Shown here: one piece after another, positions 1,918-61,731 of the stretch
How the letters are laid out: each line of letters begins with the position of its first letter
Numbering within the stretch: position 1 is the first letter of the stretch
NCBI GenBank assembly: GCA_010093705.1
Contig: MU006099.1
Span: 1 to 64,000, forward strand
Origin: Patellaria atrata CBS 101060
Taxonomy: Eukaryota
Length of the DNA stretch: 64,000 nucleotides
Direction of reading: 5' to 3'
Program-made: the position numbers and the translations under genes
The notes under the pieces: model-generated
Seen by the model: the letters and a program-made list of their open reading frames with translations, nothing else
The model's database searches: none
Told to the model about the DNA's origin: nothing

Positions 1918-2191
1918 AGTTCAGGTGTACTACGCCAACATTTTTGCGGCGTCTTCCAAATTATGGAGTAGAGTAAAGATGCTATATTGCGTCTATATAC
2001 TTGAACTCTTTTTCTTTGTCACTTTTAGTTCTCCAGGTCTCGTTAGCCTGAACTACTCAGTCGAAGTTGTCTACGAATAACATCTTCCTTTTACTAACGT
2101 AGAATCCCCTTTTCCTGATTTGGCAAATACTCCTCGCTGGTTGACTGTCCTAAGGGACCGTATTTCTCTTCTAGTAGCGTTATTATCTATC

Positions 2192-4927
2192 ATGGCTTGG
2201 GAATGCCTTCAAGATGTTTTGAAAACTATCGACACCTCAAGACCATCGCGTGGTCTTCCAATCTATCCCGTTGGGAATACATCTACACCCACAGCACTCA
2301 GTTATAGAAGCTTGTATGTACAAGCAAAGAAGCTAGGACGAAAACTGCAATTACTCGATAGTTACAAGTGCGGCTCTCCCGTACTTCTCCATCTGGAGGA
2401 TCACTGGGACATAATCCTTTGGTACTGCGCGATACTCCTTGTAGATGGCCTTCCAGTTATCTCCTCGCCATTCAGCCACATTACGGAGCATCGAAAAAGC
2501 CATATCCAACACCTTTCCCCCCTTTTTGTGTCTTCAATATGCATAATTAGAACGAAGCTTATTCATATGTTCGGCAAAGAGCATTGTTTGAAACTGTACT
2601 CGATTGAGTCATTACTTGATAGACTTACGTATCAACGGGCTACCCGATCAATGAAGCGACGCAATGACGACCTCGCTATATTAATGCTTACTTCGGGCAG
2701 TACTGGAAATGCAAAAGCGGTACAGTTGACCCACAAACAAGTCCTCGCAGCAGTATCTGGGAAGGCATCCGTACGACAACTTCCCAGAGATAAACCGTTC
2801 CTGAACTGGATCGGGCTCGACCACGTGGCGAGCTTAGTCGAAATCCATCTCCAAGCATTGTATCTAGGAGTAGACCAAATCCATGTACATGCCGTGGATG
2901 TAGTCGCCTCACCTTCAACATTTTTGGATCTCCTCAGCCATCATCAGGTATCACGCTCCTTCATACCCAAATTCTTCCTTGGGAAGATAGTCTCGGTGGT
3001 GAGGTCAAAGGAACTCCAACCGCATTCCACACCTTGGGACTTGAGATATCTTTCTGTACTTGCTTCTGGAGGCGAAGCCAACGATGCAGAGACGTGTGTA
3101 CAGGCATCTAGTCTCCTCGTATTGTTTGGAGCTCCTAAAAATGTGATAACCCCTGGATTCGGCATGACGGAAACTTGTGCAGGAGCTATTTTCAACCTCG
3201 ACTGTCCGAGCTATGAGCTCCCCCATGAGCTTTCTTATGCATCGCTGGGGAATTTTATGAAGGGTATCGAGATGCGAGCTGATACGTCCGGTCATCTCGA
3301 GGTTCGTAACAAGGTCGTATTTCAGGGCTCCTACTACAATGAACAAGCCACTTTAGAAGCATTCACGTTAGACGGCTAGTTTCGGACCGGCGATATTTGG
3401 AATCATTGATGCTGAAGGAAATCTCACCCTAGCTAGTAGGGCTAACGAGACTTTTAATATCAATGGAATCAAGTTTAACGCTTCGGGGGTACAGGCGTTA
3501 GTGGAGCAGGTGGTGGGAACAAAGATAAGATACTTAGTTACGTTTGCCAGTCGGTCCACAAAATCGCATACGGAACAGGTCATCGTTATTTACTTACCAA
3601 AGGAGCAACCGATAACCGCCCAGGAGTTGGTTGATATCGACGACTCGATCATCAAAGCCGTCATGACTTTAACAAGCATTAGGCCTTTTGTGTTTGCCTT
3701 CGACGACGAGGCTCTACTTCCCAAATCGACAATAGGAAAAATATCGAAAGCGAAGGCACGGATACTGTTCGAAGACGGGTTCTTCGCAGAACAGATCGAG
3801 CTTCACGACCACCTCATAGAAAACCAGAGATCCCGAACCCGAACCGCACCCGCCAACACCACCGAAGCCCTCCTCCTTGCCGATATCGCCGAGGTTCTAT
3901 CCATCCCGCCCTCACGACCAGGAGTCGAAACCCCATCTTCGACACGGGCCTCACATCCTTCGACCTGATCCGATTCAAACGCCGGCTTGAAACCCGCCTC
4001 GACCTCGACATCCCCCTCATAACATTCATGACCTCCTCAACTGCGCGTCTCTTCTCGAACGCCCTTGAAAAACTCACCACAAACACAGCACCCAACCCCT
4101 AGGACCCAGTCGTGACCCTCCGCCCCACCGGTCCCAAAATACCTCTCTGGCTCATCCACTCCGGCGTCGGCGAAATACTCGTCTTCCTCCCTCTAACCCA
4201 GCACCTCCCCTCGCGCCCCATCTACGCCCTCCACGCCCACGGCTTCGACGGCGAGCCGCCGTTTCCCTCCATCGCCGCGGCCGTGGAGACCTACTACGCC
4301 GCCATCAAACGTCGGCAGCCGCACGGCCCCTACGCCATCGCGGGCTACAGCTACGGTGGCATGCTCGCGTTCGAGCTCGGCAAACAGCTTGAAGCGGAGG
4401 GTGCCGAGGTCAAGTTCCTCGCGACTTTTAACCTGCCGCCGCATATTAAGACGCGCATGCGGCAGCTTAGCTGGAACCTATGTCTGCTGCACCTCACCAC
4501 GTTTCTCGAACTAATAAGCCAAGCGCGCGCAGACGCCTTCGAGGACTCTCTCGCTGCTATCCGCGCAGCCGAGGCGGTGGAAACCGTACTAGTGGTTGCG
4601 GATGAGGGGTGTATGGTTGACCTGGCGCTGTCGCCCGAGGGACTAATGACGTGGGCGGACGTGGCGTTCGGGCTGCAGAGTATGGCGGTCGAGTATGAGC
4701 CGGCGGGGAGGGTGGGGCGGATGGATGTTTTTCATGCTGTTCCGCTGAAGATAGTGGCGAGGTCGAGGGAGGAGTGGGTGCGTAATCATTTGGGGAGGTG
4801 GGGGGAGTTTTGTGGGGATGTGAGGTTGCATGAGGTCGGGGGCGAGCATTATACCGTGCTGGGTCCTGAGCATGTGGGGAGGTTTGCGGAGGTGTTGGAG
4901 AGGGCGTTGGTGGGGAGGGGGGTGTGA
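2192..4927 (+). pseudogene. NRPS-like A-T-TE enzyme (aryl-keto-acid dimerising MicA/ApvA/AtrA type), disrupted
   Basis: A-domain motifs LMLTSGSTGNAKAV, NWIGLDHVASL and PGFGMTETCAG. T domain FDTGLTSFDL (shifted frame, about 3935-3970). TE motif GYSYGG plus GEHYTVL. Lesions: TAG at 3377-3379 in DG*FRTGD, frameshift near 3397, frameshift near 3932, TAG at 4100-4102 (*DPVV). Confidence 0.9.
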
Positions 4928-19118: not shown

Positions 19119-19402
19119 TGTTAGATGGTGGAGCTGTTGGAGTATTGGTCCTACCGGCGGCGACCAGGGCTAACGAGCTACTCGCTTATGTGGTATCAGC
19201 GTAACCAGGGTTACTAATCTGATACAGTACTATCTTTTAGTGCTTACTGTTGGTATCCATATTTGCTGTTTTCTAAGACATAGATTTCATACGGTTCCGT
19301 CCGTTTTGTTACACACCTGCAGTATATAACAGCTAGATAAAGCCACTCTTTTGAGAATCAAGCGATATAGTCGGTGCACCTGCAGATCCAGTTTATCTAA
19401 CA
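19119..19402 (+). mobile_element. Solo LTR, family A
   Basis: TGTTAGATGG...TTTATCTAACA. Diverged homolog (reverse complement) of 27546-27830 and 48524-48802. Confidence 0.85.
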
Positions 19403-19515
19403 GTATCAGACCTGACTAAGCACTCAGTCGGGTATATATACTTGTCCCCCTCCAGTTCCTCTCACAGATAAGACATCAACTCTACACTTCACTTCACACA
19501 CTCATACTTTCCAAT
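19403..19515 (+). mobile_element. LTR fragment of the copia family found at 41.7-46.9 kb
   Basis: ACCTGACTAAGCACTCAGTCGGGTATATAT and the following sequence match the reverse complement of about 46770-46862. Confidence 0.75.
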
Positions 19516-23571: not shown

Positions 23572-24518
23572 TGTTACGGCCACAGGACAGAAAGACAGCA
23601 TCACCAGTAGAACGGTAGCACAAGGTGCCGGAACGGGACAACTAACACGGAGGTCACGTGACGTGATCGATGGTCAACGGTGCTCGAAGGGTATTGAGCA
23701 TAGAGCAGACTCGAGCAAACGTGATCGATGGTCAACGGTGCTCGAAGGGTATTGANNNNNNNNNNNNNNNNNNNNNNNNNNNNNNNNNNNNNNNNNNNNN
23801 NNNNNNNNNNNNNNNNNNNNNNNNNNNNNNNNNNNNNNNNNNNNNNNNNNNNNNNGGTCAACGGTGCTCGAAGGGTATTGAGCATAGAGCAGACTCGAGC
23901 AAACGTGATCGATGGTCAACGGTGCTCGAAGGGTATTGAGCATAGAGCAGGTTGAACACCACCAAATTGACTATAGAGGATAGGAATATTTAAGGACGGT
24001 CTTTCCCTCATGTATTTAGATTCTTCGTAGTTATTCTTACCATCAATCTTACCATCAATCTTACCCATAGATTTGGATGTTACGGTTTTGAACTTGACTT
24101 CACTTGTTACGCTGTTTCCATACAGTACGTCTTGTCTCATTGTGAGCATTACCTGAAGTCAAGGAGTCAGCAAGTTGCTCCGCCAACTTGAAGTGCCGTT
24201 GTTATACGTATCCTATCACTTTGCCAAACCTACCTTTGTGGTTGACCACGTTAAGTGAGAAGCCAGGCGCGTTTCTAGACTTATCCAGCTCCGTCTTGAT
24301 AAGTATAGACTCCCGTTGTAACANNNNNNNNNNNNNNNNNNNNNNNNNNNNNNNNNNNNNNNNNNNNNNNNNNNNNNNNNNNNNNNNNNNNNNNNNNNNN
24401 NNNNNNNNNNNNNNNNNNNNNNNCCTACCTTTGTGGTTGACCACGTTAAGTGAGAAGCCAGGCGCGTTTCTAGACTTATCCAGCTCCGTCTTGATAAGTA
24501 TAGACTCCCGTTGTAACA
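23572..24518 (+). mobile_element. Solo LTR, family F, with a 58-bp internal repeat; length inflated by two N gaps
   Basis: TGTTAC...GTAACA termini with perfect TSD GTTAG (23567-23571 and 24519-24523). Sequence is duplicated on both sides of each 100-N gap. Confidence 0.85.
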
Positions 24519-25593: not shown

Positions 25594-26023
25594 ACGGTCA
25601 TTTTAATCGGTGACACCCTCCATGAGAATTAGTATGGAAACCTCGCTATTTGCGCTCAGATTTGGCATGTTAGAGTTCGGGGTGCTAAGGACAGAGTTCA
25701 TGGGTAGATTTCTATGTCTAGGATTGGATAAGGGTGTCACACGAAGGGTTACCTTCTGATGGCTTGCTATACTTGTTGTTATGGAAGAATATACTGAGGT
25801 CTAAAAGCTTTTCAAAACTGGTAATTGACATCAGGGTCTCATTTGGGGATTAATGAAATAGTGTTCTGAGGAGCTATATCCTCGAATCATATCTTAACTT
25901 CTTGACATTGATCAAGTGATTAACTGTCCATAAATTTGCTTTTGACTCAGTCTAGTAGCTTTTGGACATCCGAAATCTAACTATCTATTTGCGTCTAGAC
26001 ACTTAATGCGGGGTATATGCTGC

Positions 26024-26292
26024 TGTTGAAGTATGGGTCCCCTTGTTAGACTGAAGATCTTGGTGGAAAGGATAATCAAGTATATCTCCTACTGCCTTAC
26101 GCTAGTTATTAGCATCATTCCTTTAAAACAGCTGCCTAGTAGGTATCAACGCTGTTGCCTGCATGTTCTCAGTTGCCTAGTAGGTATAAACGCTGTTACC
26201 TGCATGTTCTCATGTATTTAAACGCTCTTTAGAACAGTCATTAAACAAGCGAGCGATTATCTTGATCATTTTCAGCACCCTTACGTCTGACA
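26024..26292 (+). mobile_element. Solo LTR, family B
   Basis: TGTTGAAG...TCTGACA with perfect TSD GCTGC. A second copy lies at 27831-28516. Confidence 0.92.
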
Positions 26293-26803
26293 GCTGCGCT
26301 TTGTGGCCTGTTAACCGAGATTGTATGGAGGGTTTTATGATGATCTGCTTATATATAGAGATTTTACAATCTTTTATGAAGCCAAAGTGTTTAATAACAT
26401 CTTCCAGGCATCATAATAACATCCGGTGTGCGGGCGGAAGCTTTGTGGTGTCTAATAGTATCTAATCTAGTTAAATCCCACACCCGCTCTACACTTTCTA
26501 TGTTCTCCACTACTCTCCTCAACATCTCAAAGTCCTTTGCGTGGGCCCCATTTATTATCAATTCTGTAGATAAAATCATCTCATGTTTGCTGTTCTTGGA
26601 CAAATAGTCTATACCAATTGCTAAGCCGGAGCTCAAAGCAATTTACATCGCTCAGACTTCATCTGTTCATGAGCGCTCCCCGGAGACCCAACATCAACTA
26701 CACTATTATCAAATAATGCACTACATTCAAGTTATGATCCGTAAATGTGAATTGAAGTTCCACCACATCCTCTGGACCAGTGCTGAGTTTTGTCTCGTTA
26801 ATC

Positions 26804-27253
26804 TTTTTTTTTTTTTAAATCCATTGCATTGCATTATCTACAATACTGCGCATGCAGCCTCTAGTGCTATGGCGCTGCTCTTCTATTCACATCAATCCCT
26901 ATCCTAGGGCAATAATATGTCTAGTAAGAGTGTCTGAGGAGTGAAACTCTCCAGTTGTCCAAACTTTGCAGTCTGATAAAATCCACACAGGTATGAGCTA
27001 AGGTAGTAGATAGAAGGGTAAGAGTGTTCATTGATTGTCAACTATCTGGAGTGGGTGCCTGTGCTATCTTATAGTATTGCCTGCTCAACCATCTCACTTA
27101 TCCTGGTCCCCAACCATCTGATATCCAGCCATCTGATATCCAGCCACCTTGCGTGACCCTCAATTTCACCGCAGTCCAAGTCAAGCTTTTAGAAAAAGTG
27201 AACCAACTCCACTGTATCCTTTGCTCCTCAATTCCCTGCATTATATTTCAATC
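26804..27253 (-). mobile_element. LINE (Tad1-like) 3' end with poly(A), interrupted by LTR family E
   Basis: A T-run at 26804-26816 is followed by the 3' UTR motif shared with 40064, 46868 and 48271. The sequence is colinear with 48271-48450. Confidence 0.8.
26977..27168 (+). mobile_element. Solo LTR, family E
   Basis: T(G>A)AAAT...ATTTCA termini. The left part recurs at 41336-41483 and the right part recurs inverted at 28977-29023. No TSD. Confidence 0.7.
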
Positions 27254-27545
27254 CAACCAAGTGGTCCAGCCAAAGCTAATGGTTAGATGGCTTGGGATGT
27301 TCCTAGACTCAAAACTCACCTTCAAACAGCATGTAGAAAGAAAGATTAAGAGTGCAGAAAATGCAATATACATGATTCAAAGGCTAGGAAACACACAGAA
27401 AGGTCTATCAATGCAAGCGGTGCGTAAGCTGTATATTGCATGCATCAACTCAATAGCAGACTATGGAGTACCAGTATGGTGGAACCCAAATCACAGGAAC
27501 AGCCAGCAAGTTGGAAGTATCAAACATTGCAGAACAAAGCATTAA

Positions 27546-28528
27546 TGTGAGATAAACTGGATCTGCAGGTGCATGGAATATGTCGCTTGATTCTCAAAAG
27601 AGAGGTTCTATCTAGCTGTTATATACTGCAGGTGTGTACTAAAACGGACGGAACAGTATGAAAGCTATGTCTCAGAAAATAACGAAAATAGCACCAACAC
27701 AAGAACTAAAAGATAGTGTTATGTTAGTTTAGAAACCCTAGGTTACGACGATACCGTAATTGTGGTGGTATAAGCGACTAGCTCACTACCCCTGGTTACC
27801 ACAAGAATCAACACCCCGATAGCTCCACCATGTTGAAGTATGGGTCCCCTGTTAGACTGAAGATCTTGGTGGAAAGGGTAATCAAGTGTATCTCCTACTG
27901 CCTTACGCTAGTTATTAGCATCATTCCTTTAACACAGCTGCCTAGTAGGTATCAACGCTGTTGCCTGCATGTTCTCAGTTGCCNNNNNNNNNNNNNNNNN
28001 NNNNNNNNNNNNNNNNNNNNNNNNNNNNNNNNNNNNNNNNNNNNNNNNNNNNNNNNNNNNNNNNNNNNNNNNNNNNNNNNNNNNNNNNNNNNNNNNNNNN
28101 NNNNNNNNNNNNNNNNNNNNNNNNNNNNNNNNNNNNNNNNNNNNNNNNNNNNNNNNNNNNNNNNNNNNNNNNNNNNNNNNNNNNNNNNNNNNNNNNNNNN
28201 NNNNNNNNNNNNNNNNNNNNNNNNNNNNNNNNNNNNNNNNNNNNNNNNNNNNNNNNNNNNNNNNNNNNNNNNNNNNNNNNNNNNNNNNNNNNNNNNNNNN
28301 NNNNNNNNNNNNNNNNNNNNNNNNNNNNNNNNNNNNNNNNNNNNNNNNNNNNNNNNNNNNNNNNNNNNNNNNNNNNNNNNNNNNNNNNNNNNNNNNNNNN
28401 NNNNNNNNNNNNNNNNNNNNNNNNNNNNNNNNNNNNNNNNNNNNNNNNNNNNNNNNNNNNNNNNNNNNNNNNNCGAGCGATTATCTTGATCATTTTCAGC
28501 ACCCTTACGTCTGACACACCATCTAACA
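27546..28528 (-). mobile_element. Solo LTR, family A, inserted in a LINE
   Basis: TGTGAGATAAA...CATCTAACA with TSD ATTAA (27541-27545 and 28529-28533). Confidence 0.9.
27831..28516 (+). mobile_element. LTR family B inserted in LTR family A; spans an N gap
   Basis: TSD CACCA on both sides. Termini identical to 26024-26292. Confidence 0.88.
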
Positions 28529-28845
28529 ATTAAGGATGATCTTAGGTGCCTTTAAGACTTCCCCAAGCATGGCCATGGAAATTGAAGCAGGTCTACCTCC
28601 CCCAGCTGTTAGATTTGAAAAGCTATGCAATTCTTATGCCCTCAGAACTCTAAAGTTCCACAAAAACAATCTAGTTAAGAGATTTCTCTGGGAAGAGCTT
28701 GAAAGAGATGACTTAGAAGCAACCTTAGACTCTGACTCAGAAGCAGGCAATACTCCCATCAAGTATATCACAAGACCAAACACTCAACTCCTATCCTTAT
28801 TGAAGAGAACTCAGGAGTTTATCACCAACTGGAAGACGGAAAAGA

Positions 28846-28916
28846 TGTCAGATATAAGCCTTACTGCCAAACTCGGCATTAAGGTCGGCCTTTTGCCGTA
28901 GTGGTATAATCTCACA
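28846..28916 (+). mobile_element. 71-bp TG...CA mini-element, copy 1
   Basis: TSD AAAGA. Its removal restores LINE codons EKISVHNA. One mismatch to the copy at 44804-44874. Confidence 0.92.
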
Positions 28917-29023
28917 AAAGATTTCCGTACATAATGCCCAACGTTGGAGACCAAAGTTAAAGGCGTTATTTATTGATGAAATTGAGGGTCACGCAAGGTG
29001 GCTGGATATCAGATGGCTGGATA

Positions 29024-29434
29024 TGTGAGATTGTGGGTAACTGAATGTAGTCGCTTGATTCTCCGTACAACTACGGATTCTATCTAGTGTTTATATAACG
29101 ACAGACCACCTTATTGATTAACCCTTTAACGTCACGAAGCCTAGCTACGTAATCTCCAAATCAAGGCGAACATAACGATACTACCTACGTCAGATATAAA
29201 ATAAGAGATGACATCAAAAGAGTGAGCTAATGTTATAGTTTTGNNNNNNNNNNNNNNNNNNNNNNNNNNNNNNNNNNNNNNNNNNNNNNNNNNNNNNNNN
29301 NNNNNNNNNNNNNNNNNNNNNNNNNNNNNNNNNNNNNNNNNNNCGAGCATTTAGCTCTGAAGATCTCCAACACGAACTCCTGGAGATCCTGACGATCTTC
29401 CAACATAAGGCTATCGGGGATCGGCCATCTGACA
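29024..29434 (+). mobile_element. Solo LTR, family C; spans an N gap
   Basis: TGTGAGATTG...CATCTGACA. Near-identical to 42470-42806. No TSD. Confidence 0.88.
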
Positions 29435-29443
29435 CTACCTCTT

Positions 29444-29809
29444 CAACCAAGTGGTCTAGCCAAAGCTAATTGTTAGATAGTTTGGGATGTTCCTAGACTC
29501 AAAAACTCACCTTTAAACAGTATGTAGAAAGAAGGATTTAGAGTATAGAAAATGCAATATACATGATCTAAAGGGTAGGAAACACATAGAAAGGTCTATT
29601 AATGTAAGCGGTGCGTAAGCTGTATATTGCATGCGTTAACTCAATAGCAGACTATAGAGTACCAGTGTGGTGGAACCCTAATCATCAGAATAGTTAGCAA
29701 GTTAGTAGATATTAAACCCTATAGAAAAAGGCACTAAGAATGATTTTAGGTGCCTTTAAGAATTCTCTAAGTATGGCTATAGAGATTGAAGTAGGCCTGC
29801 CTCCTCTAG
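29444..29809 (+). mobile_element. RIP-mutated LINE RT fragment
   Basis: Colinear with 27254-27545 plus 28534-28605, with many C>T and G>A changes that create stops. Confidence 0.85.
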
Positions 29810-29982
29810 TGTCACGGGTTAGACCCGATAGGTATAAGTGCCTTGAATGATCCAGCGGCTTAGTCATACTGTACTTTAGCACAACGGCATATGCTGTCTC
29901 AACACTTTCTTTCCTTAAGTTTAAACTTCATGTACATGTAGCAATATACCTTTCAGCTTCCATCCGAGGTTGAGCCTTGACA
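29810..29982 (+). mobile_element. Probable solo LTR, family G
   Basis: TGTCA...TGACA termini and internal TATAA. It truncates the LINE fragment. Single copy here, no TSD. Confidence 0.55.
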
Positions 29983-30350
29983 CTGAAAGATGCAATGGCA
30001 GGCTCACGGACGCGCAGATCTTGGACTAGCTGTGAACTGCGTACTGTAGAAAAGGGGTTGCTGACGACTGGCCGATAGATGTATCGCCCTGGGAATAGTA
30101 AAGATAGAGGAATAGGGGTTGAGCGAGTTGCCCTAGGCGGAACGAATGCAGTTTAATGATATACTATACTGGAGCACTGAAAGAATAGATAGTTATATAC
30201 GAGAAATGGATAGGAGTTCGTGAGCAAAATTCGTCTCTCTTTACGGTACCATTTTTCGAATCGTGAGAACTGAAATCTGAAATCTACTCTCTAAAAACGT
30301 CCAGTAAAACGGCAAACACACTCTAAATATTTTCTTCTTACCCCTACTAC

Positions 30351-40063: not shown

Positions 40064-40625
40064 TTTTTTTTTTTTTTCCTTCCATTGTGTTGTATTATCT
40101 ACAATACTGCGCAAGCAGTCTTCAAGCTATGGCGCAACTCCCTATACACATCAATCCCTTTTCAGGACCCTTATATGCTTAGTGAAGTCTTCAGTAGCTT
40201 AACCCGCTGATATTTTATATGTAAAGGAAAGTTAGTACGTTTAAACTCTATGTAAAGGAAATTATTGAAAAACCATTTTTCTTCCTCTTTACCATCTCTT
40301 TTCTATTTCCAGTTCTATGCCATGCATCTTGTTATCTTCTGTAGACTCTACTCTACACTTCTACTCTGTCTACATCTCCTGTGTGCATCAGCCATCTAGC
40401 AGTAGAGATTTGAGTTCTTCTATATACTTAAATAACACCTGTTTGCCTAACTTTGTGCAAAAAAGCTTTGCCATTGTTAACTTTGTATCTTAGCTGCCTC
40501 CTCATTTCCTTACGCTCTTTTTGAGTAGTTTGCACAATGTAAAATAAAGTTTGTTGGTATTTGGAGTGATTGACAGTCTTTAAAGCACTTCCATTCTTCA
40601 TCTTTGCCAATTAATTACCTTAGAG
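40064..40625 (-). mobile_element. 5'-truncated LINE 3' end with poly(A)
   Basis: T-run at 40064-40077, then the shared 3' UTR. Colinear with 46868-47320. Confidence 0.82.
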
Positions 40626-41483: not shown

Positions 41484-41752
41484 TGTTAGATGGTGAGGCT
41501 CGCTACCGGGTAAATGGATGCTTACTGGTACAAAACAGTGGTGAAAACAATGGTATGGAACGGTAGCTTGAGACAGAGCGTCAAACCGTATTAAAACAGA
41601 TCTCTGACGAGAACACGGATCTGTGGTGTTTTATCTGTTCTCTTTCTGACCCAGTATCATTGTCAACTGTTCAGTATATAGTCCATATCTCTCTCAGTAG
41701 TTGCAAATCAAGCGACATATTCCATGCACCTGCAGATCCAGTTTATCTCACA
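41484..41752 (+). mobile_element. Solo LTR, family D (A-related)
   Basis: TGTTAGATGGTG...TTTATCTCACA. The last 45 bp or so match family A; the middle differs. No TSD. Confidence 0.82.
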
Positions 41753-42469
41753 GTAGTCTAATTGTCTGCTGATTATCACAGAATAAGAGCTGTTTATTGT
41801 CTGGATGGAAGTTTAGAGATTTGAAGACTCTCCACCACCAGATAAGTTCTGTGCCTGCAGTGGATGCGGCCATGAGTTCAGCCTCAGTGGTTGATTTTGT
41901 AACACAGCGTTTGAGTGTTGCCTTCCAGTCAATTGGAACTCCAAAGAGGAAGAAGATGTAACCCTGTGAGCTCTTTCGAGTCGCTTGGTGATCCGCATAA
42001 GAGGCATCAGTTGCGCCAAAGAAATCGGGTTCTTCGTGGTCCTGAATAAAGGCTGCGTCTGCTGTAATTGAGGCATTGTAAACGAGTGATTTTGATTTTG
42101 TATAGTAGAGGTAGGCTAGAGTTTGGTATGCAGCGTTAATGTGAGTTACTGCAGGATTGGTTAAGAACTCAGCAAGTTTGGAGTGTGCTTTTGAGATATC
42201 TGGTCTTGTTGCTCCGGCTGCATAGCCTATTGATCCGACCAATTGAGCGTAGCGTAGATAGTTGCTTTCGTTTTTAGTCTCATTAGACGGAAGGAGCTCC
42301 TCTGCCTGCAATGGCGTTTGAGGTGATTTTGTGAATGCTTTTGGGGATGGATATTTGTGGTAGATCTTATCGATATAGTCTCCTTGATTTAGCCAGATAG
42401 AGCCATTGTCTCTGTCTCTATGCACGGTTATGCCGTAAAAGGTCTTGAGATCTCCTAGTGAGTGGATCT

Positions 42470-42806
42470 TGTGAGATTGTGGGTAACTGAATATAGTCGC
42501 TTGATTCTCCGTATAACTACGGATTCTATCTAGTGTTTATATAATGACAGACCACCTTATTGATTAACCCTTTGACGTCACGAAGCCTAGCTACGTAATC
42601 TCCAAATCAAGGCGAATATAACGATACTACCTACGTCAGATATAAAATAAGAGATAATATTAAAAGAGTGAGCTAATGTTATAGTTTTGGTGATACTTAA
42701 CCGATAAGTCGGAGCTGAGCATTTAGTTCTGAAGATCTCCAACACGAACTTCTAGAGATCCTGACGATCTTCCAACATAAGGCTATCGGGGATTAGCCAT
42801 CTAATA
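42470..42806 (+). mobile_element. Solo LTR, family C, inserted in the copia RT
   Basis: TSD GATCT (42465-42469 and 42807-42811). Its removal restores RYEIHSLGDLKTF. Confidence 0.92.
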
Positions 42807-44803
42807 GATCTCATAGCGTTGAAGAAGCTTCCTCTTAAACGAGTTAAGATAAGTAGAGTGGCCTGGTTTTGCTAGGACTACGATATCATCTACGTAGAAG
42901 AAGACGATAAGCTTATCATCCATCCAAAGCCAAGAAGCATCGAGGACTGGTTTAAGACCAAATTTGCTCAGGGTCTGTGTAAGATTTTTGTACCAAAGGA
43001 TTGGTGAAGTCTTGAGGCCGTAGAGTGCACGATGTAGTTTCCAAAGATGTTGCTTGTCATTAAATCCTTCAGGTGGATGGCAATAGACAGCTGTGTCAAG
43101 ATCTGCGTTTGTGAACGCATTGACTACATCATACTGCCTGATATCGAGATTGAAGTAGGCGGCAATAGCTATGAGAGAGCGGAATATCTTGATAGCTAGG
43201 GTAGCAGCATGAGTATCTTCAGTAGTGGTTTGAAGATCTCCTCGTACGCAAATTCGAGCTTTGTACTTGAGAAGGTAACCTTCATTGTCAAATTTGTACT
43301 TAAACACCCATAGTAGTGGTAAAATCTCGTGTTTAATGGAGTTAAAATCTTTCCACAAGATTTCTTCATAAGTACCTTTTCTTTTGATAGTTTAAAGTTC
43401 CCGAAGAGTGGCTGCAATAAAACCTTACTTGTGCGGTTCTATCATTGCTTGAATATCTGACCAGTATCGGGGTTTAGATGGAAGTTGAGAACGGTGGAAG
43501 CGATGCTTAGTGTTGTTGGTTGAAGATACCACAAAGGTGGACCAATAATGGCTAATTGCGTAAGATTGTTTTTGAGATTTGGTTCTAGCTCTCTTTGATC
43601 CTTCAGGAAGAATATTTGATATGCGAAATTGAGCATCAATAGTATCCCTGTTAATAGTAGTATTGGAGCGTTTTCTTTTGCCAGATGATTGAGAAGATTG
43701 AATGGGTTATTCTAGTAAAGCATCTTCTATAATCGTTTGAGAACTAGTTATGCTACTTGTGTCTAAGGTACTAGATGGTGGCGGTTGAGACGAATTATCT
43801 GATCTAGGAGTAGGATAGTCATTATAATGAGTAAGGGTTATTGTAGAGCCTTTATCCTATACTATCTAATGAGACTCTTGCTGTTCCTCATATTCTAAAG
43901 ATAAAGTAGGATTAGTAACATCTTTATCCTTAGAAGAGCTTTTAGCTTTAGGTTCTAGTATCTCAATAATGTGAATCATCTCCTTAAGTGACTGATTTTA
44001 AAGTAAGTTATTAGGCTAATCTCTATAGAAAGAATCTTCTTTAAAGAACATATTATAAGAGCGAATCACCTTCCCTTAATGACCCTTACTTAAGGCTTTG
44101 GGGATCCAAATGCGGAAAATATTTGTTGAATCATATCTAACCAGATAGCCAATATGAGCTCGAGGTGAAAGCTTGTCAGATCTTAGTATTATGTTCCTTA
44201 GAGGAAATGCTTTACACCCGAATACATGGAGGTGTGCTAGTGAGGGCTTCTTATTGTATACTTTCTCAAATAGAGTATCCCATTGCAGTGATTTATTTGG
44301 AGTTCGATTGAGTAGATAACTAGCTATAATATAAACCTCTAGAGCAAGATAGATAGGTAATTTTGTAGTAACCATCATTGATCTTAAGCGTTTAATGAGA
44401 GTTTTACTAGATCTTTCTGCAGGACTGTTCTATTCTAGCGTATATGGAGCGCGGACTTGAATCTGAATACCTTCTTCATAGCAATAAGCAATTATTGAGT
44501 CCTCTGCTGCAAAGCCATACCCTCTCTCTCCATCCATGAGGAGAAAAGTGCATGTGATATTGAATTCTCGCTTAAGTCTACGGTCTAGGACTTTGAGCAC
44601 CTTTAGAAGGGTTTCCTTCTCTCGATTGGGAATTGAAAAGACAAAGTTAAACTTAGTAATAAGATAGTAACTATAAAGGATATACTTGTGTCCATTGTAT
44701 CCTATTGCATCTAACTTGATAATGTTAATAGCAATTGATTCAAATGGTCTTATGGCACCATGTTCTCTTCCAGGTCGTCTTGAAATAATGTGATAAGCTT
44801 TAT

Positions 44804-44874
44804 TGTTAGATATAAGCCTTACTGCCAAACTCGGCATTAAGGTCGGCCTTTTGCCGTAGTGGTATAATCTCACA
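44804..44874 (+). mobile_element. 71-bp TG...CA mini-element, copy 2
   Basis: TSD TTTAT. Its removal restores copia codons CLANKAYHIISRRP. Confidence 0.92.
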
Positions 44875-46740
44875 TTTATTGGCCAGGCATTGTTTATAAT
44901 GGAACTTTGTTGGTGCTTCTCCAATAATCTTAGCGATACCAATGACTTTGGAACTAAGATAGTTAATTGCTTCTTTGCTAGGATGCCCCATAAGAAGATA
45001 AGCTTTAGTGGCAGTAAACTGACGTGGTTTACGGGGGTTTGTAGAGAAACGGTGTTGATTGGAGGAAGTAAATGTTTGGAATGGTCCGCGAGGTTCCGTA
45101 GAAGGCGGAGGTGTTTTAGTTCTATATAGAACGAGCTAATAACCTCCAACCTAAGTTAGTAAAGCAACAATCTCTCTAATTAGGCCTTTTTTATAGAGAG
45201 CGTTATTCCTAGAGTCGAAATGGATCCTAGTAGAGTTAAGCCGATATAGCGAGACTAACGAGGTGAAGAATGGTGGCACTAGGGCGATGTGTTTAAGAGT
45301 AGCCTTTTTGATTCCATTAGGAGTCAAGAATGGAATAATCACCTCTCCCCATGCTTGTATCTGCATTTCTTACCCTCCAGCTAGTATCACGTCATTGTCA
45401 GCTACTGGTGCTTTCCAGTGGAATTCTGTAGGGTTGTTGCAGATGTGGACGTCTGAAGCGGGGTCAAGAGTCCAAGAATGAAGTAATGGATATTGTTGAG
45501 CGGAGCCTTGGTTGAAATTCGACGAATAGACGGCAAAGAATCCATTACGTGAGGAAGGATAGAAGCCTAAATCAACTTCTAGTGGGTCTAAATCATGTAC
45601 CTCGTGTTAGATAGTTCTGGGTTTCTTGCTACGTTCCCTATTTCTAGCTCGTATTCTGTTGAGGATTCCTTTCTTATCTTTAGCTTCAAACTCAGCAACT
45701 TTCTTGGCTTTTTCAGGGTCTTCAACAAATCCTCTTTCTCTAACACTCGGGTCAATGTAAGGACATTTACCCTAGATGTTATCATGACTGTCTCCATCTC
45801 CGGCTGGACAGGGCTTAGTTAGTTTCTTTTCCCCAAACTTTCTCTTCCTGTTATATGGAGAATCCTCTCCATTGAGAGTTGCAAAGACACCTCCATGAAT
45901 ATTAGCTTTCTTTGTATGTGTAGCTCGATAGTATTGGAGAAACTCATTGGTGAGATAATCAACTATGCATTCGGGGTCAATCTGAGCAGGGGCATTCTGA
46001 CGACGAGCCTTAGTAAAGGTTTCTTGAGCTTTGAAGATCCTAATTCCCATGAGAGTAGTCTAAGTAGGTTCGAGATACTTGAAAGCTCTTATAAGATCTT
46101 TCTAAGCACGGTATCTAGAGACATCTGGTAAGTCCAAGCTTTTTGCCTTAATGTATACATTTGCGAAGTGATGGCACCAATCTTCAATGTTGTGACGACG
46201 TGGATCAAAGAGTTTCCCTTTATTGTACTGCTGTATAACAAGGTCCTCTTGATTTGCTTGAGTAGGAGCAAATCGGTTATAGAAGTACTTGAGAAGTTCG
46301 TGGACTGATATAGTAGTTTTAAGGGTAGGTAGGAAGGCCCTATCCACTGTTTTAGTGATATATACTCTGATAAGACCAAGTTTCTCTTGTTTGCGTTTAA
46401 ATTGTTTAAGGGAATGCTTGTACTGATCAAACGCATCTGAGAATGGTTCTCCTTCAGCGGTAAGTGTTCTATTCTCGGCACGTCTGATAGGTATAATTGG
46501 TTCCTGTAGTGGTTCACAAGTCTTCTCTGGGTCAATGAGATCCCAAAGGCTGTAAGACTCGGCCATGCTTTTGATCATAAAGATCCAGGGAAGCCAGTCA
46601 TTCATACTATAAAGAGTGACTTCTTCTAAGATCATCTTGGAATGGGTAGGCATGGTGGAAACAGAAGATAGTAGGTAAGTTGATGAAGATAATTGATAGA
46701 TAGTTGAACAAGAAATGATTTTGGTAAGGTGCGGATTATG

Positions 46741-46753
46741 CCGGGCTCATAAC
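46741..46753 (-). other. Primer-binding site complementary to the tRNAi-Met anticodon arm
   Basis: GTTATGAGCCC directly follows the LTR end ...CCTTACA (46754). Confidence 0.8.
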
Positions 46754-46867: not shown

Positions 46868-47320
46868 ATTTTAATTCCATTATATTGCATTACCTACAAT
46901 ACTGCGCATGTAGCCTTTAAGCTATAGCGCAACTTCCTATATACATAAATCCCTTTCCAGGGCCCTCATATGCTTAGTGAAGTCTCTAGTGGCTTAGTCC
47001 ACTAATATTATTTACAAAGGAAAGCTAAGACCTCTAAAATCCATATAAAGGAAATTGTAGAAGCATCTATTCTTTCTCATTGCCATCGGTTCTTGGTTTC
47101 TAGTTCTATGCCATACATCTAGTTATCTTTTGTAGAATCTACTCTTCTACTCTGTTTACGTCTCCGGCATGCATTAGCCATCTAGCAGTAGAGATTTGAG
47201 TTCTTTCTATATATTTTTAGTAACACTTGTTTACCTAACTTTATGCAAAAAAGCTTTGTCATTGTTAGATCTGATCTGAGTAGTTTTCTCATTTCTCTAC
47301 GTTCTCTAGAGTAGTTAGAG
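46868..47320 (-). mobile_element. LINE 3' end truncating the copia 5' LTR
   Basis: Colinear with 40078-40535. Runs into an N gap. Confidence 0.8.
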
Positions 47321-48270: not shown

Positions 48271-50080
48271 TGGCGCTACTCTTCTATCTACATAAATCCC
48301 TATTCTAGGGCAATAATATGTCTAGTGAGAGTGTCTGAGGATTGAAGCTCCCCAGTTGTTCAAACTTTACAGTCTAATCCAAGCATTAGAAAAACTGAAC
48401 CAACTCCACTATCTCCTTTGCTCTTCAGTTCCCTGCATTATATATCGATCTAGTTTCTACCCTGTATGCTATCATTTTTAATATGTTTCTTGTTTTTCTT
48501 CATTGATTTCTCTTTTATGTAGCTGTGAGATAAACTGGATCTGCAGGTGCATGGAATATGTCGCTCCATTCTCAAAAGAGAGGTTCTATCTAGCAGGTGT
48601 GTACTAAAACGGACGGAACAGTATGAAATCTATGTCTCAAAAAATAACGAAAATAGCACCAACATAAGAACTAAAAGGTAGTGTTATGTTAGTTTAGTAA
48701 CCCTAGGTTACGACGATACCGTAATTGTGGTGGTATAAGCGACTAGCTCACTACCCCTGGTTACCACAAGAATCAACACCCCGATAGCTCCACCATCTAA
48801 TAGAAACGCACAAGATCTCTATAAATGCGTGTATAATGTTTACCTTATTTCTTGCTATTAGCCTCCTAGCTTTGTTTCCAATTAGATAAGATCTTTTCCT
48901 TGCCTCTCCGTTTAATATAACTAAGTGATGTGAATGAAGTGCCTATAGGCTTACGGCTTAGTCCTTTTTTAGCCAGCTTATCTATTATATCATTCCCAAA
49001 AATATTCTTATAGCTAGGAACCCAGCTAAAGGTAATTTTCATTTCCCATTCATTGGTAAGAGTATTGCATAGGTCTGTTATCAACATATTTAATTCTTGT
49101 CCTCCATCAAGGCTGTTCTTTTGTAGCCTCTTGAGTGCTGCCTGGCTGTCCACAAAAACCCGTAGGTTTTCGGCAATGAATTGTCCTTTCTCACGTTGGG
49201 TCTTTTCTCTTTTAAGTGCTTTGAGGATCGTAAATAGTTCTGCATCCATAATCTTAACGCTATCCCCTAAGTTCCAGTTACTGGCAAATAAAATGCGTTG
49301 ATTGTTTCCTATCTGGCATGCTCCTGCAGCATTTCTATTGCCTTCTTTAGACCCATCAGCGTAGTAAACGCTGACTAAACCATCCGTCATGCCTGATTCT
49401 AGGTCTCTAATTAGTCTATCATGTTGCTTTGATGCTTTTTCCTTGTCCTTGCTGGAGATGATAAATAATGCTTTTAACTTTGGCCTCCAAGGTAGAGCAT
49501 TATGTACAGAAATCTTTTCTATCTTTCAGTTGGTGATAAACTCCTAAGTTCTCTTCAATAAGGACAGGAGCTAAGTGTTTGGTCTTGTGATATGTTTGAT
49601 TGACGTATTGCCTATTTCTGAGTCAGAGTCTAGGGTTGCATCTAAGTCATCTCTTCCAAGCTCTTCCCAGAGCACTCTCTTGACTGGATGGTTCTTATGG
49701 AACTTCAGAGTCCTGAGGGCATAAGAATTGCACAGCTTCTCAAATCTGACAGCTGGAGGAAGCAGGCCTGCTTCAATCTCCATAGCCATGCTTGGAGAAG
49801 TCTTGAAGGCACCTAAGATCATCCTCAATGCTTTGTTCTGCAATTTTTGATACCTTCCAAATTGCTGGCTGTTGCTGTGATTCGGGTTCCACCATACTGG
49901 TACTCCATAGTCTGCTATTGAGTTGACGCATTGCTTGCATTGATGGACCTTTCTGTGTGTTTCCGTCTTTGAATCATGTACATTGCATTTTCTGCACTCT
50001 TGATCTTTTTTTCTACATGCTATTTAAAAGTAACTTTTAAGTCTAGGAACATCCCGAGCCATCTAACCATTAGCTTTGGC
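48271..50080 (-). mobile_element. Tad1-like LINE 3' portion (RT C-terminus plus RNase H)
   Basis: VRWLGMFLD and MILGAFKTSP. RNase H YYADGSK, DAELFTI, FVDSQAAL and WVPSYKNIFGNDIIDKLAK. Confidence 0.9.
48524..48802 (-). mobile_element. Solo LTR, family A, within the LINE
   Basis: Near-identical to 27546-27830. Terminal CA is mutated to TA. No TSD. Confidence 0.88.
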
Positions 50081-57093: not shown

Positions 57094-58880
57094 ATGGCTA
57101 CACTCGCCATAACATCCTCCTCTGTCCCAGAGCCTCAAAGCAGTCATTCCACCCATCCCTTCACCTGTAATACGTGCCAGGTCGCTTTCAGATCGAGCGA
57201 CTTGCAAAAGGCTCACATGCAAAGCGATTGGCAGTAAGTGCAATCCCGGTGCATGGCTCCTTGCTCCATACCCCTCCACCATCCCATACTGACCCCGCTC
57301 TTCCCGTAGTCGATACAACCTCAAGAGACGAGTTGCCTCACTACCACCGCTGTCCTCCGAAATATTCACCGAAAAAGTTTTGGCAAACCAGGCTGATGCT
57401 GCTGCTATAGCTGCGAGGGCATCCTACCAAAAGGTATGCGAAGCGTGTCAAAAACCGTACTATAGCGAAAATGCATACAACAACCATTTGAGGAGTCAGA
57501 AACACAAAGTGAATCTGTTAAAGCAGCAGCGTGCGAGTGCTGTTGGTAAAGAAGATGATAATGTATCTGTGATGAGCTCCACCTTCTCATTGGGAGAGCC
57601 CATCGCCCCACCAAAGGAAACCACTGATCCAGTTGCGGAAGAAGAATTTTCAAACATCGTAGAAGGAATCAAAGACACCTCTCTTGAGGATCGAGAAAGC
57701 CCAATACCGCGGCGGCCCACACGTCCACATCATTCTAGTGCTGAAGAACAGAAGGAACACCCCCTTTCCCCCACTGTATCAGGTGAATCTGAGCTGGTAA
57801 AGCCGAAAAGTCCAATCCTCACTTGTCTCTTCTGCAACTTTGCTTCTCCAACATTCCCCCTTAATGTCCTGCACATGACCCGTTATCACAGCATGTTCAT
57901 ACCCGAAGAAGACTACCTCACAGACGAGACTGGTCTTATCGGATTTCTGCACTCCAAAATCATGGATGATCATACCTGCCTCTACTGCGGTAAACACAGC
58001 ACAACTTCAGCTGGCATCCAAACTCACATGCTCGACCGCGGTCACTGCATGATCGCCTTCAATTCCGAGGAAGAAATGATCGAAATAGGCCAATTCTACG
58101 ATTTCAGCTCCACCTACTCCGACGAAGAAGACTCAGATACCAACTCCGATGCCACAGCAGACGACAAGACCAACGGCGGCGTCAAGCTTGGTACCAAACG
58201 CACCGCCAACAACGATGACGCCATGGACGAAGACGACGACGGCTGGGAGACAGATAGCACCCTCTCCTCCGTTCCCACGGATGAAATCACCAGCGTCCCC
58301 ATCCAAGACCGCAGCCACAGGTACAAGCAACTCGGTAAGCATAGACACCACTCCCACGCAGACCCAAGGCCGCATCGCGAGGCGGATGGGTTCCACAGTC
58401 ATGCGCACAACACCCCTCACGCCGTATATCACGACGAGTACGAATTACATCTCCCGAGCGGTCGCACCGCCGGCCACAGGAGCTTGAAAGTCTATTACCG
58501 CCAGAACCTGCGCAGCTACCCCTCCCAATCCGAACGCGAACAACGCCGCATCACCCCCGGATCCGGAGAAGATTCAGACGTCGAAATGGCCGATTCCTCG
58601 ACGCGAAACCCGAACGGCGAAAGGGGCAGACGCGATCAGAGACAGTTGGCTACGCGGGCGAATGGCGGCATGGGTATGGTTGGTGTCACGGACGCGAAGA
58701 AGAGGGAGGTCCTCAAGGCGGAGAGGAGGGAGAGGAATAAGGAACGACGACATGTTGAGAAGGGCAGGTGGAGGAATGAGAAACAGGGGAATTCGCAGAA
58801 GCATTATCGGGTTAGTCATCTTAATATTTTGCGCTCTGTGGATGTTTTACTGACATTGGCAGGATCCGCTATTACAGTGA
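57094..58880 (+). CDS. REI1: Cytoplasmic pre-60S factor Rei1 (ZNF622 family); introns 57234-57309 and 58811-58862
   Basis: FTCNTCQVAF...HMQSDWH|RYNLKRRVASLPP. C2H2 fingers, LHLPSGRTAGHRS, and the C-terminus QKHYR|DPLLQ*. Confidence 0.95.
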
Positions 58881-59406: not shown

Positions 59407-61731
59407 CTACGTATTTCCATTACCCAATACCCATCGGTATTCTATGGGCTCCAAGTCTCGCGGGAAGGACGTGGGATCCCACTCCCGCACCTGAACCCGG
59501 TCAGCGGAGGGGCAACACACGTGCGCGGGCCTACGCTTGAACACCTCAAAACACTGATCTAGGTACTCTTCCGCCTCGTACTCGACCTCGATGAGGTGCG
59601 GGGTGCGCGGGTGGGGGAGTTCGAGGAAGAGGTGTCCGACCAGATTGTGGATCTGGTAGCTCGCTAGGTAGTCTAACTCGCTTTTGCTGGCCCAGAGGTG
59701 TTTATTTTGCTGTACGAGCGTATCTAGGTACGCTGGGATACGGGGGGGTGAGAATTCCGATGGGAGTGTTGATTGGGCCGTGGGGTAAGAGGGCCAGACC
59801 GTACCACTATCCGTCCTGTCGGTCTTTGGAAGGGTGATACTAGTGCTCTGCGAGGAAGACCTTGTCCGAGAGGAGTGTGGGAATCCTGATATACGGGTAC
59901 TGGTCGACGTTCAGGTGGTAGCTCTTTTCCGATCAGATCCGTAGGAAATTGAATCCGAGACGCCCATGTCTCTGCCATTCTAGAACGGTGTCAGCTTCTC
60001 GGCAGAGGCGGTCTACGGTACGAAATTGTCCGGAATGTAAGCCGAATAGAGCGCCCAAGGGCGCAAATTCCGTCTTTACGTTGACTAACCGCCGGTCGTT
60101 GGTTGCGACTAGGCTGTGGACTATTTCATCGAGCTTTGAGGTACGGAGAACGATGTCGAAGCCAGGGTCCCTGGCGAGGGGATAGTACATCCATCTGGGC
60201 GCTGCGATACCTAAGATATTGTGATCCGCATGTTCGACACAATCCATCCATCGGTGCGCTACGGTACCTACGAGGACGAAGGGATAGTTGAAATCTTTGA
60301 GGACGCCAGCAGTGGGTGAGAGTGTACTGTTGGTAGCCGGCATAAGTTTCGATAGTACGACGCCACCAAGCCACAAAATGAGTTTGTAATGTAAATATAT
60401 TTTTGATTATCTAATCCTACCACTTTGTGAATCTGCCTTCTGCTGTAACGACGTCCTTACAGCATTGTTGCATGCTCTCAATCAGTTCATGAAGCTGCTC
60501 AGTTGTAATTGCCTCCCATGCCTCCTTCACGATAGTACGTAATGTATCGTATGTTGGATTTTCAAGAGCCCCATACTTATGCTGTATGTAGTCCTTCATC
60601 CAGTTCCATACTGTCTCAATAGGATTGAGATCTGGTGAGAATGGAGGCCAAGTCATGGTGTTGATACCACGTTCTTGTAGCTCTTGAATCATCGCTACCG
60701 CTGCCTGCGCAGGGGCATTATCTTGCATAAAGATTAAGCCTGGATTCATCATTATCCACTTATGTACAATCGGTACGATACGATTGCAGTATGTATCTTG
60801 ATTGAAACTGCCCCATTCCTTCTCCCAAAAGAGACATGGCCCTTTTGTTGTACCGTTGAATGATGCCCAAAACATCCGGCCACGGTTACGACGTCTCTTT
60901 GTAACCAGACATGTATCTTCTAGCTCTTCACCTTGTTGTCTTGTAACCCAAGTCTTTCGATGCCTTATACCATTGACCCAGGTCTCGTCACTCCTGAGTA
61001 TTGTACACCACTGGTTGCATGTCTACTCCACATGCTCCTCTGCCCAGGCTAATCTCTTCAAACAATTAGACTCAGTTTAGGGAGATTTGGCTAAGGCAAT
61101 GTACCTTCGATATCCAGCGCGACGTAATGAGGATCGGATTGCATATTCACCAACACCCCAGTGTGCAAATATCTCAGTTGCGAGTCTCTGATAGCTCATA
61201 CGACGTGTCTCTCGTGATTGACGTATATACGTAATCAACTGTTCAACCTGCTCTTGTGATAACTGTGGTGGGCGCCCGCTACGCTTCTTTGGTGTAACTT
61301 GCTCGGCTTGACACGCTCGCTGAACTTGCTGGTATGAGAATCCAAGATGCTTGACAATTGCTTCATATGTAAGGCCAATTCCTCGTAATGTTTGACTTGG
61401 ATTCGTTGGTCGCGAGTAAGATGATGGCGTTGAAGGGAGGCATATTCAGTCCTTCAGTATAGATAGATATATAACACTAAGGTAATAACACGTGGACGCG
61501 AGGAGTGAATAGGATATTAAATAAGACGCTGAGTAAGAAATAATAGTATGAATATAGTTAGTATATACAAAAGCTTGGTGGGGTCGTACCATCGAACCTT
61601 ATGCCGGCTACCAAAGTACTGACATCTATACATTCTTGTGCAAATGAGCCGAAACGAGTTAAATATTCTTCACTGTACAATTCAACGGTTGATACTTCCT
61701 TTTCAAAGAGTATCTCAATATGGATAGTCAT
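59407..61731 (-). pseudogene. Fungal protein of unknown function (possibly nucleotidyltransferase-like), split by Tc1
   Basis: Removing the Tc1 and one TA gives MTIHIEILF...CIDVSTLSPTAGVLKDFNYPFVLVGTVAHRWM. It continues LRI*SEKSYHLNVD...IPAYLDTLV...QIHNLVGHLFLELPH with stops and a frameshift. Confidence 0.7.
60327..61616 (-). mobile_element. Tc1/mariner DD34E transposon, full length with a disrupted transposase
   Basis: TIRs of about 45 bp (CT(G)TTGGTAGCCGGCATAAG...) flanked by TA. Motifs SGRPPQL, SDETWV, FMQDNAP and WPPFSPDLNPIE, with 34 residues between D and E. Confidence 0.93.

Follow-up and report, generated by a model that had tools for sequence, protein, structure and literature searches.

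The window analysed here comprises 64,000 nucleotides of contig MU006099.1 from Patellaria atrata CBS 101060 (assembly GCA_010093705.1, positions 1 to 64,000 of the forward strand). Patellaria atrata is a wood-dwelling fungus and belongs to the Dothideomycetes; as judged by title and abstract, no publication on its transposons was found in the literature. The genes of the window include ATG13, a HECT/AZUL ligase and a cap methyltransferase, and the ATG13 ORF shares ~63% identity with its nearest homologues beyond the species' own protein, to which it is 99% identical along its entire length. A Tc1/mariner-type element of ~1.3 kb (60324-61619) lies between two host genes; its 48-bp terminal inverted repeats (TIRs) are 92% alike, and a DDE_3 ORF is found on its minus strand (60417-61022). 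The window also contains a degenerate copia interior, two LINE copies, long terminal repeats (LTRs) of two families, here denoted LTR-A and LTR-B, and two copies of an element of 71 bp, which is the subject of this analysis (Table 1).

Some parts of the assembly call for separate mention. At each of two gaps of 100 N, the sequence on one side is repeated exactly on the other, over 84 bp (23672-23755 = 23856-23939) and 95 bp (24229-24323 = 24424-24518), respectively; since the contig ends overlap, these gaps are probably spurious. Positions 26000-30000 form a mosaic of short repeat pieces with three N runs, in which the first copy of the 71-bp element is found. Some of these pieces are 100% identical to others (26250-26292 = 28474-28516, and 27121-27168 as the inverse of 28977-29024). 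The mosaic represents debris of nested transposons or, alternatively, small contigs that were joined with uncertainty.

Table 1. The 71-bp element, its host sequences and the LTRs compared with it, in coordinates of the 64-kb window (TSD, target-site duplication; RT, reverse transcriptase).
Feature	Positions	Strand	Remarks
71-bp element, copy 1	28846..28916	+	ends TGTCAGAT...AATCTCACA; within LINE fragment; sense strand set by comparison with LTR-A/B ends
Left TSD of copy 1, AAAGA	28841..28845	.	right copy 28917-28921
71-bp element, copy 2	44804..44874	+	T replaces C at element position 4; within integrase of minus-strand copia
Left TSD of copy 2, TTTAT	44799..44803	.	right copy 44875-44879
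LINE fragment hosting copy 1	28529..28973	+	paralogue match on both sides, and translation
LINE paralogue with empty site	49461..49829	-	single AAAGA at 49513-49517; translation uninterrupted
Degenerate copia interior (gag-position ORF, integrase, RT)	41751..46746	-	hosts copy 2 and the solo LTR-A
LTR-A, 337-bp solo LTR	42470..42806	-	TSD GATCT 42465-42469 / 42807-42811; inside copia RT; end motifs as in the 71-mer
LTR-A, second copy	29024..29434	-	N run 29244-29343 inside; sense 5' TGTCAGAT and 3' AATCTCACA identical to 71-mer ends
LTR-B copy, ~284 bp	19119..19402	+	sense strand; ends TGTTAGATGG...ATCTAACA; leader-like stretch next to it
Leader-like stretch behind LTR-B	19403..19498	+	~95 bp; 81% identical to 46866-46772 (minus strand), just 5' of copia gag-position ORF
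LTR-B copy	27546..27831	-	sense 5' end diverged from the other copies
LTR-B copy	48524..48802	-	from repeat comparison
LTR-B fragment, 3'-terminal 47 bp	41706..41752	+	from repeat comparison

A pattern search of the 64-kb window that allowed up to 3 mismatches returned exactly two matches to the 71-mer, compared with 0 expected from 100 shuffles, and no further partial copies were found in the window with word-7 BLAST. The next match there had an E value of 0.15; this match (57204-57238) and another one at 57298-57323 (E 2.9) do not involve the element ends. The sole difference between the two copies is a C/T exchange at element position 4, at a CpA. On the + strand, the element starts with TGTCAGAT in copy 1 and with TGTTAGAT in copy 2 and ends with AATCTCACA. 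Copy 1 alone permits a one-base slide of the element boundaries, copy 2 does not, which sets them at TG...CA. Both copies possess the ends that are typical of an LTR (TGTCAGAT...ATCTCACA, i.e., TG...CA with a short terminal inverted repeat), and the inverted repeat is imperfect, with 10 matches in 12 columns and one gap. The flanking duplications fall within the 4-6 bp expected for an LTR and differ between the two insertions, and the empty sites described below carry a single copy of the target. A strict scan of the window for TGTNAGAT...ATCTNACA units of 40-1500 bp with a 5-bp TSD found nothing beyond the two 71-mers, and the control on the reversed sequence gave 0. Exact-pattern scans of metagenome contigs with two 24-letter parts of the 71-mer yielded 0 matches each.

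Inside the element, two hairpin stems are both present in the minimum-energy fold. When folded as DNA, the + strand reached a z-score of -2.81 (an equally good fold in 2 of 200 shuffles) and the - strand -4.05 (0 of 200); as RNA, the corresponding values were -2.11 and -2.94. ARAGORN detected 0 tRNA genes in the 71-mer, and Rfam gave 0 matches at the gathering score as well as 0 at E values up to 10. TATA-like letters at positions 8-13 constitute a bare motif only. We also considered that the 71-mer could be a SINE and rejected this identity, as there is no tRNA, 5S or 7SL match and no tail, and the TSD is fixed at 5 bp.

Both insertions interrupt reading frames that can be restored. For copy 1, the stretches 28529-28849 and 28916-28973 align with 49829-49509 and 49518-49461, respectively, with 88% identity on either side of the insertion point. 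If 71+5 bases are excised from the LINE fragment, ...NWKTEK is joined to ISVHNAQRWRPKLKALFI, which is the reading of the paralogue; the ORF of the latter (48866-49525, minus strand) has an RNase_H domain. Copy 2 is positioned between the zinc-finger part and the core part of the copia integrase, where the minus-strand frame ...CLANK ending at 44875 resumes in frame as KAYHIISRRPG... from 44801. The copia ORFs downstream of it match SH3_retrovirus (44079-44429, E 1.1e-14) and RVT_2 (42804-43391, E 2e-31). The solo LTR-A inside the same copia interior behaves alike, since excision of 337+5 bases rejoins the RT frame as ...LLQRYEI|HSLGDLKTFYGITV. An empty counterpart of the copy 2 site was found in contigs of the runs X1 and X2, which stem from one sample of one study and may be the data underlying the window assembly. 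A joint that skips 76 bases (44798->44875) is present in 2 contigs of each run, at a depth of ~2x that of a single contig, and these contigs are copia copies without the insertion. With exact TSDs, restored frames and empty sites, both 71-bp insertions are real.

The ends of the 71-mer are not confined to it. For the motif TGTSAGAT, 14 sites were counted in the window where 5.0 would be expected; 0 of 100 shuffles reached 14, and 10 of the 14 sites are ends of three families: the 71-mer, LTR-A and LTR-B. In sense orientation, LTR-A and LTR-B read TGTYAGATGG...ATCTCACA. The first 8 and the last 9 letters of the 71-mer are identical to the ends of LTR-A; with LTR-B, identity covers the last 8 letters and, for copy 2, the first 8 as well. 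The 71-mer and both LTR families also share the same asymmetry between their ends (C/T at the 5' end as opposed to C at the 3' end). Beyond TG and CA, the match amounts to 13 identities at fixed positions, for which we calculated a chance of ~1.5e-8 per comparison. Mobilisation in trans would require an element to have its ends in common with the LTRs of an autonomous lineage of its genome; those of the 71-mer are shared with LTR-A and LTR-B.

LTR-A and LTR-B are themselves related, as 0 of 300 shuffles reached their alignment score, and the 3' 75 bases form the clearest common block. Both the sense orientation of LTR-B and its affiliation with copia follow from the 81%-identical, copia-like leader behind the copy at 19 kb; judged by this sequence likeness, LTR-B is a true LTR tied to the copia lineage. 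The first leader letters partly resemble the copia-type primer-binding site for initiator tRNA; as the window contains no tRNA gene for comparison, we did not count this resemblance as evidence. Upstream of the same LTR-B copy by ~500 bp, TGTCAGATGG at 18623 corresponds to 10 letters of the sense 5' end of LTR-A and may end a further related LTR. A pair of direct repeats (40074-40530 and 46869-47316, ~450 bp, 79% identity) brackets the copia interior and may represent the old LTRs of this copia element itself. These repeats are without TGTYAGAT ends, one of them is cut by an N run at 47321, and the leader beside this one is 81% identical to the leader after LTR-B.

Between its ends, the 71-mer resembled neither LTR-A nor LTR-B significantly. 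An origin of the 71-mer by internal deletion from LTR-A was considered, as the words AGCCTTA and CCGTAGT..TATA are shared at roughly matching places, but the respective scores were reached by 498, 611 and, in the best test, 76 of 2000 shuffles. In the tests of the whole interior, 1635 and 1762 of 2000 shuffles did so; only the ends are demonstrably common. Likewise discarded was a match over 11 letters between element positions 2-12 and internal sites of LTR-A (29189 and 42635), for which our own arithmetic gives ~2 matches expected by chance and which has the opposite relative orientation.

The original prediction, made from the letters of this window alone, had described two 71-bp copies with one C/T difference, independent 5-bp duplications, host frames restorable by excision, a LINE empty site near 49495-49530, imperfect inverted repeats, two internal hairpins and ends of LTR type. 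All of this was borne out by the results above, and the assignment of the ends was strengthened by their letter-for-letter match to those of LTR-A and LTR-B. Two readings had been offered with that prediction, the solo LTR of a tiny TRIM-like element and a minimal integrase substrate with two attachment ends, and both are weighed below.

To what extent the element is repeated beyond the window was addressed with the contigs of X1 and X2 (k=31 assembly), which were aligned to 44654-45024 at a likeness of at least 88%. The element region was matched by at least 72 contigs in X1 and at least 33 in X2. Summed word depth in the element bins peaked at 53685 (X1) and 17502 (X2), compared with ~1200 and 400-470, respectively, in the copia flanks and ~300-600 in individual long contigs. 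The summed depth over the element, which is not itself a copy number, is ~40-100x the single-copy depth and points, in order of magnitude only, to a family of some tens to about a hundred members. Loose contig ends cluster at the element borders, at 44803/44804 before and 44874/44879 behind it. With several contigs per border among those listed, and a consensus agreement of 0.49-0.67 only, the flanks of the copies are many and unlike each other. Contigs that measure between 844 and 19682 letters contain the element once each, at 1-6 differences, and contigs of 2.5-19.7 kb each carry one diverged copy. No variant within the element reaches 5% of the depth in X1 or X2; most copies are therefore near-identical.

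Neither a contig with two copies nor a 'go back' joint was found among the 72+33 contigs listed for X1 and X2 at k=31. In the 64-kb window, no paired 71-mers enclose an interior with primer-binding site and polypurine tract, nor do two copies occur on one contig among those 72+33, a finding to be read with the collapse of identical LTRs at k=31, which renders young complete elements invisible in the contig data. The consensus of 5 contigs that continue behind the element equals 10 of 13 letters of the LTR-B leader at a nearly equal offset. This is a weak hint, which carries no weight because the consensus is noisy.

The 71-mer is a multi-copy mobile family with the ends of copia LTRs and a TSD of 5 bp, the copia-type length. 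Both copies in the window, like those in the contigs that have visible surroundings, are most likely to be read as solo LTRs; two independent insertions with different 5-bp TSDs, the empty sites, the unlike flanks and the ends identical to those of LTRs support this reading. We propose, at a probability of roughly 55%, that they are the solo LTRs of a miniature, non-autonomous retroelement similar to TRIMs and SMARTs that was moved by a copia integrase. A short non-coding master element would consist of an LTR, a primer site, a short interior, a polypurine tract and the second LTR. It would be transcribed, possibly by read-through, and then be mobilised in trans, i.e., packaged and reverse transcribed by the proteins of an autonomous copia relative, which would belong to the lineage of LTR-A and LTR-B. 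The copia integrase would recognise TGTYAGAT...ATCTCACA and insert the element with a 5-bp staggered cut, and recombination between the two 71-bp LTRs would later leave one LTR within the original TSD. A complete element with two 71-bp LTRs was not seen, and both window copies are solitary.

Among described elements, the plant TRIM CcaRetroS9 measures 233 bp and has 52-bp LTRs (PMC4717578). The SMART FRetro129 has a length of 292 bp and LTRs of 85 bp; its solo LTRs, which are flanked by TSDs, comprise 79-87 bp (PMC3281118). Together with the 129-bp copia solo LTRs mentioned below, these cases make a 71-bp LTR short but not unprecedented, and the novelty in size that the original prediction implied was overstated. 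What the 71-mer has in common with these plant elements are the TGT...ACA ends, the 5-bp TSD, the very short non-coding LTR and the occurrence as solo LTRs. They differ in that the plant families are defined by predominant copies with two LTRs, as reported, whereas the 71-mer was seen solitary only and in a Dothideomycete host, and there is no sequence similarity. Size, the lack of coding capacity and the differing TSDs of the 71-mer agree with the TRIM criteria of Gao et al. 2016, and no complete copy was found in the window or the contigs. For the grass SMART family with 85-bp LTRs, the ratio of complete to solo copies was given as 3.4:1 to 50:1 (PMC3281118). A family with solo LTRs only is unexpected for so short an LTR, as complete SMARTs outnumber solos in grasses, unless recombination is far more efficient in this fungus.

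Fungal TRIMs are represented by Helenus, with a 5-bp TSD and tRNA-derived LTRs, some families of which are left only as solo LTRs or fragments (PMC10886601). The 71-mer resembles them in being fungal and non-autonomous and in its 5-bp TSD. However, according to the same report the LTRs of Helenus include a section that resembles a tRNA and has A and B boxes, whereas the 71-mer is without a tRNA or Rfam match; as that report describes them, Helenus elements are known from Pucciniales and some Agaricomycetes, not from Dothideomycetes (PMC10886601). An identity with Helenus or TRIMp3, the LTRs of which carry a Pol III promoter, was rejected, since ARAGORN and Rfam revealed no sequence derived from tRNA or 5S RNA. 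A further parallel is found in Pyrenophora teres f. maculata, in which PtTi-1 to 5 are described as 129-bp solo LTRs of Ty1/copia type with a 5.3-kb autonomous parent in ten intact copies (10.1101/798991). This fungus is a Dothideomycete, too, and the short copia LTRs, their 5-bp TSDs and the repeated recent insertions as solo LTRs only correspond to our findings. In contrast to PtTi, for which a parent with the same LTRs is known from that source, the 71-mer has about half the length, and a parent carrying it was not seen in the window or the contigs. Read as a solo LTR, the 71-mer would be a previously undescribed family of the known TRIM type, with an LTR of uncommon length, and not a new kind of element.

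The solitary state of the copies would also be explained if the 71-bp unit itself was inserted, as double-stranded DNA of one LTR with both attachment ends that the copia integrase joined directly, so that no interior was ever present. Plus-strand strong-stop DNA duplexed with the minus-strand 5' end, from one or a few master templates, is a possible source of such DNA. All copies with visible context are indeed solitary (2 of 2 in the window, and none paired among the 72+33 contigs listed, several of which have 2.5-19.7 kb), the likeness to real LTRs is confined to the ends and does not extend to the interior, and the lack of variants at 5% of depth or more suggests a recent spread with little time for recombination. 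The Pyrenophora teres case, as reported, offers a parallel, with five recent independent insertions at one promoter that are all 129-bp solo LTRs (10.1101/798991). Direct insertion of one-LTR DNA would still need a master template with these LTRs and therefore adds a step while removing none; moreover, the contigs could not have revealed young complete elements, in which identical LTRs collapse at k=31, and the weak leader-like signal behind the element points the other way. Also counting against it, we know of no documented pathway by which LTR-only DNA is made and integrated at scale. We regard direct insertion as unlikely, if worth keeping in mind. Distinctly unlikely is a 'retro-MITE', that is, one LTR reduced to two copia attachment ends and a pair of hairpins, inserted directly and present in about a hundred near-identical copies, which would be too short for detection by repeat-induced point mutation (RIP) while its longer relatives mutate.

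A different enzyme would be involved if the 71-mer was a MITE, the deletion derivative of a cut-and-paste DNA transposon with an integrase-like transposase of the Ginger2/TDD type or another DDE transposase. The likeness to LTR ends would then reflect a rule, TGTNR...CA, common to that enzyme superfamily. Ginger2/TDD elements are reported to have TGTNR ends, AT-rich targets and TSDs of 4 bp, or of 5 bp for TDD-4/5 (PMC2836005). The 71-mer is similar in all these respects: its two ends fit TGTNR (TGTCA / TGTGA), both TSDs are AT-rich 5-mers, and Ginger2/TDD chemistry is of the integrase type, as that source describes it. The length of 71 bp, the imperfect inverted repeat (10 of 12 columns), the hairpins and the solitary, dispersed copies would suit a MITE, too. 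However, the 8 + 9 letters identical to copia-tied LTRs, with the same asymmetry, go well beyond TGTNR and agree letter for letter with LTRs in the same window. Ginger2/TDD elements as described encode a transposase and have long TIRs (about 50-180 bp), and for Ginger TIRs 40-270 bp were reported (PMC2836005), against ~12 bp in the 71-mer. No element that encodes a transposase and shares long TIRs with the 71-mer was found within the 64-kb window, the sole transposase of which is the Tc1/mariner-type DDE_3 ORF with its unrelated 48-bp TIRs. We therefore consider such an origin improbable, even more so than the readings with a copia integrase. Hardly credible at all is an artefact or chance, through misjoined reads or a collapsed repeat. 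Copy 1 does lie within a contig of just 770 bp that has an N run on either side and is surrounded by short repeat pieces. The junctions of copy 2 are not bridged, under the 31-letter rule, by any of the contigs listed, although such a gap in cover proves nothing. Against this stand the exact 5-bp duplications, the restoration of both frames, the empty paralogues, a 70-letter contig that spans the last 13 letters of the element into the copia flank with 0 differences, and the presence of the element inside long contigs elsewhere.

The usual LTR finders work with a lower length limit of ~100 bp, so that elements as short as the 71-mer go unannotated. Within 16 kb, the 71-mer disrupted two coding frames, and its copies appear to number in the tens. 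In the related fungus Pyrenophora teres, solo LTRs of about twice its size are reported to drive overexpression of a fungicide target (10.1101/798991), so that mini-LTRs which escape annotation may have a bearing on gene regulation. Should a complete element not exist, the 71-mer would point to an undescribed route, in which an integrase inserts DNA that consists of an LTR only.

The longer repeats of the window bear traces of mutation that the 71-mer largely lacks. The two LTR-A copies (42470-42806 vs 29024-29434) differ by 16 transitions and 0 transversions, with 10 of the changes at CpA/TpG, and the LINE copies (28529-28845 vs 49514-49829) by 32 transitions and 6 transversions. A divergence that consists nearly entirely of transitions, many of them at CpA/TpG, resembles the signature of RIP; window-wide dinucleotide indices indicated no strong RIP. 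The original prediction had also suggested that RIP may not target the 71-mer efficiently because of its small size. This idea fits the transition-rich longer repeats and the mostly unmutated 71-mers, with no element variant at 5% of depth or more, and stops short of proof. Transition-riddled long repeats next to largely unmutated 71-mers provide a natural test of whether small size allows an escape from RIP. Elsewhere in the window, positions 1-2000 have a G+C content of 14% and consist of degenerate, AT-only short repeats, which look like either a heavily RIP-mutated or an AT-isochore block. This block adjoins a pair of genes with AMP-binding and thioesterase domains at 2081-4927.
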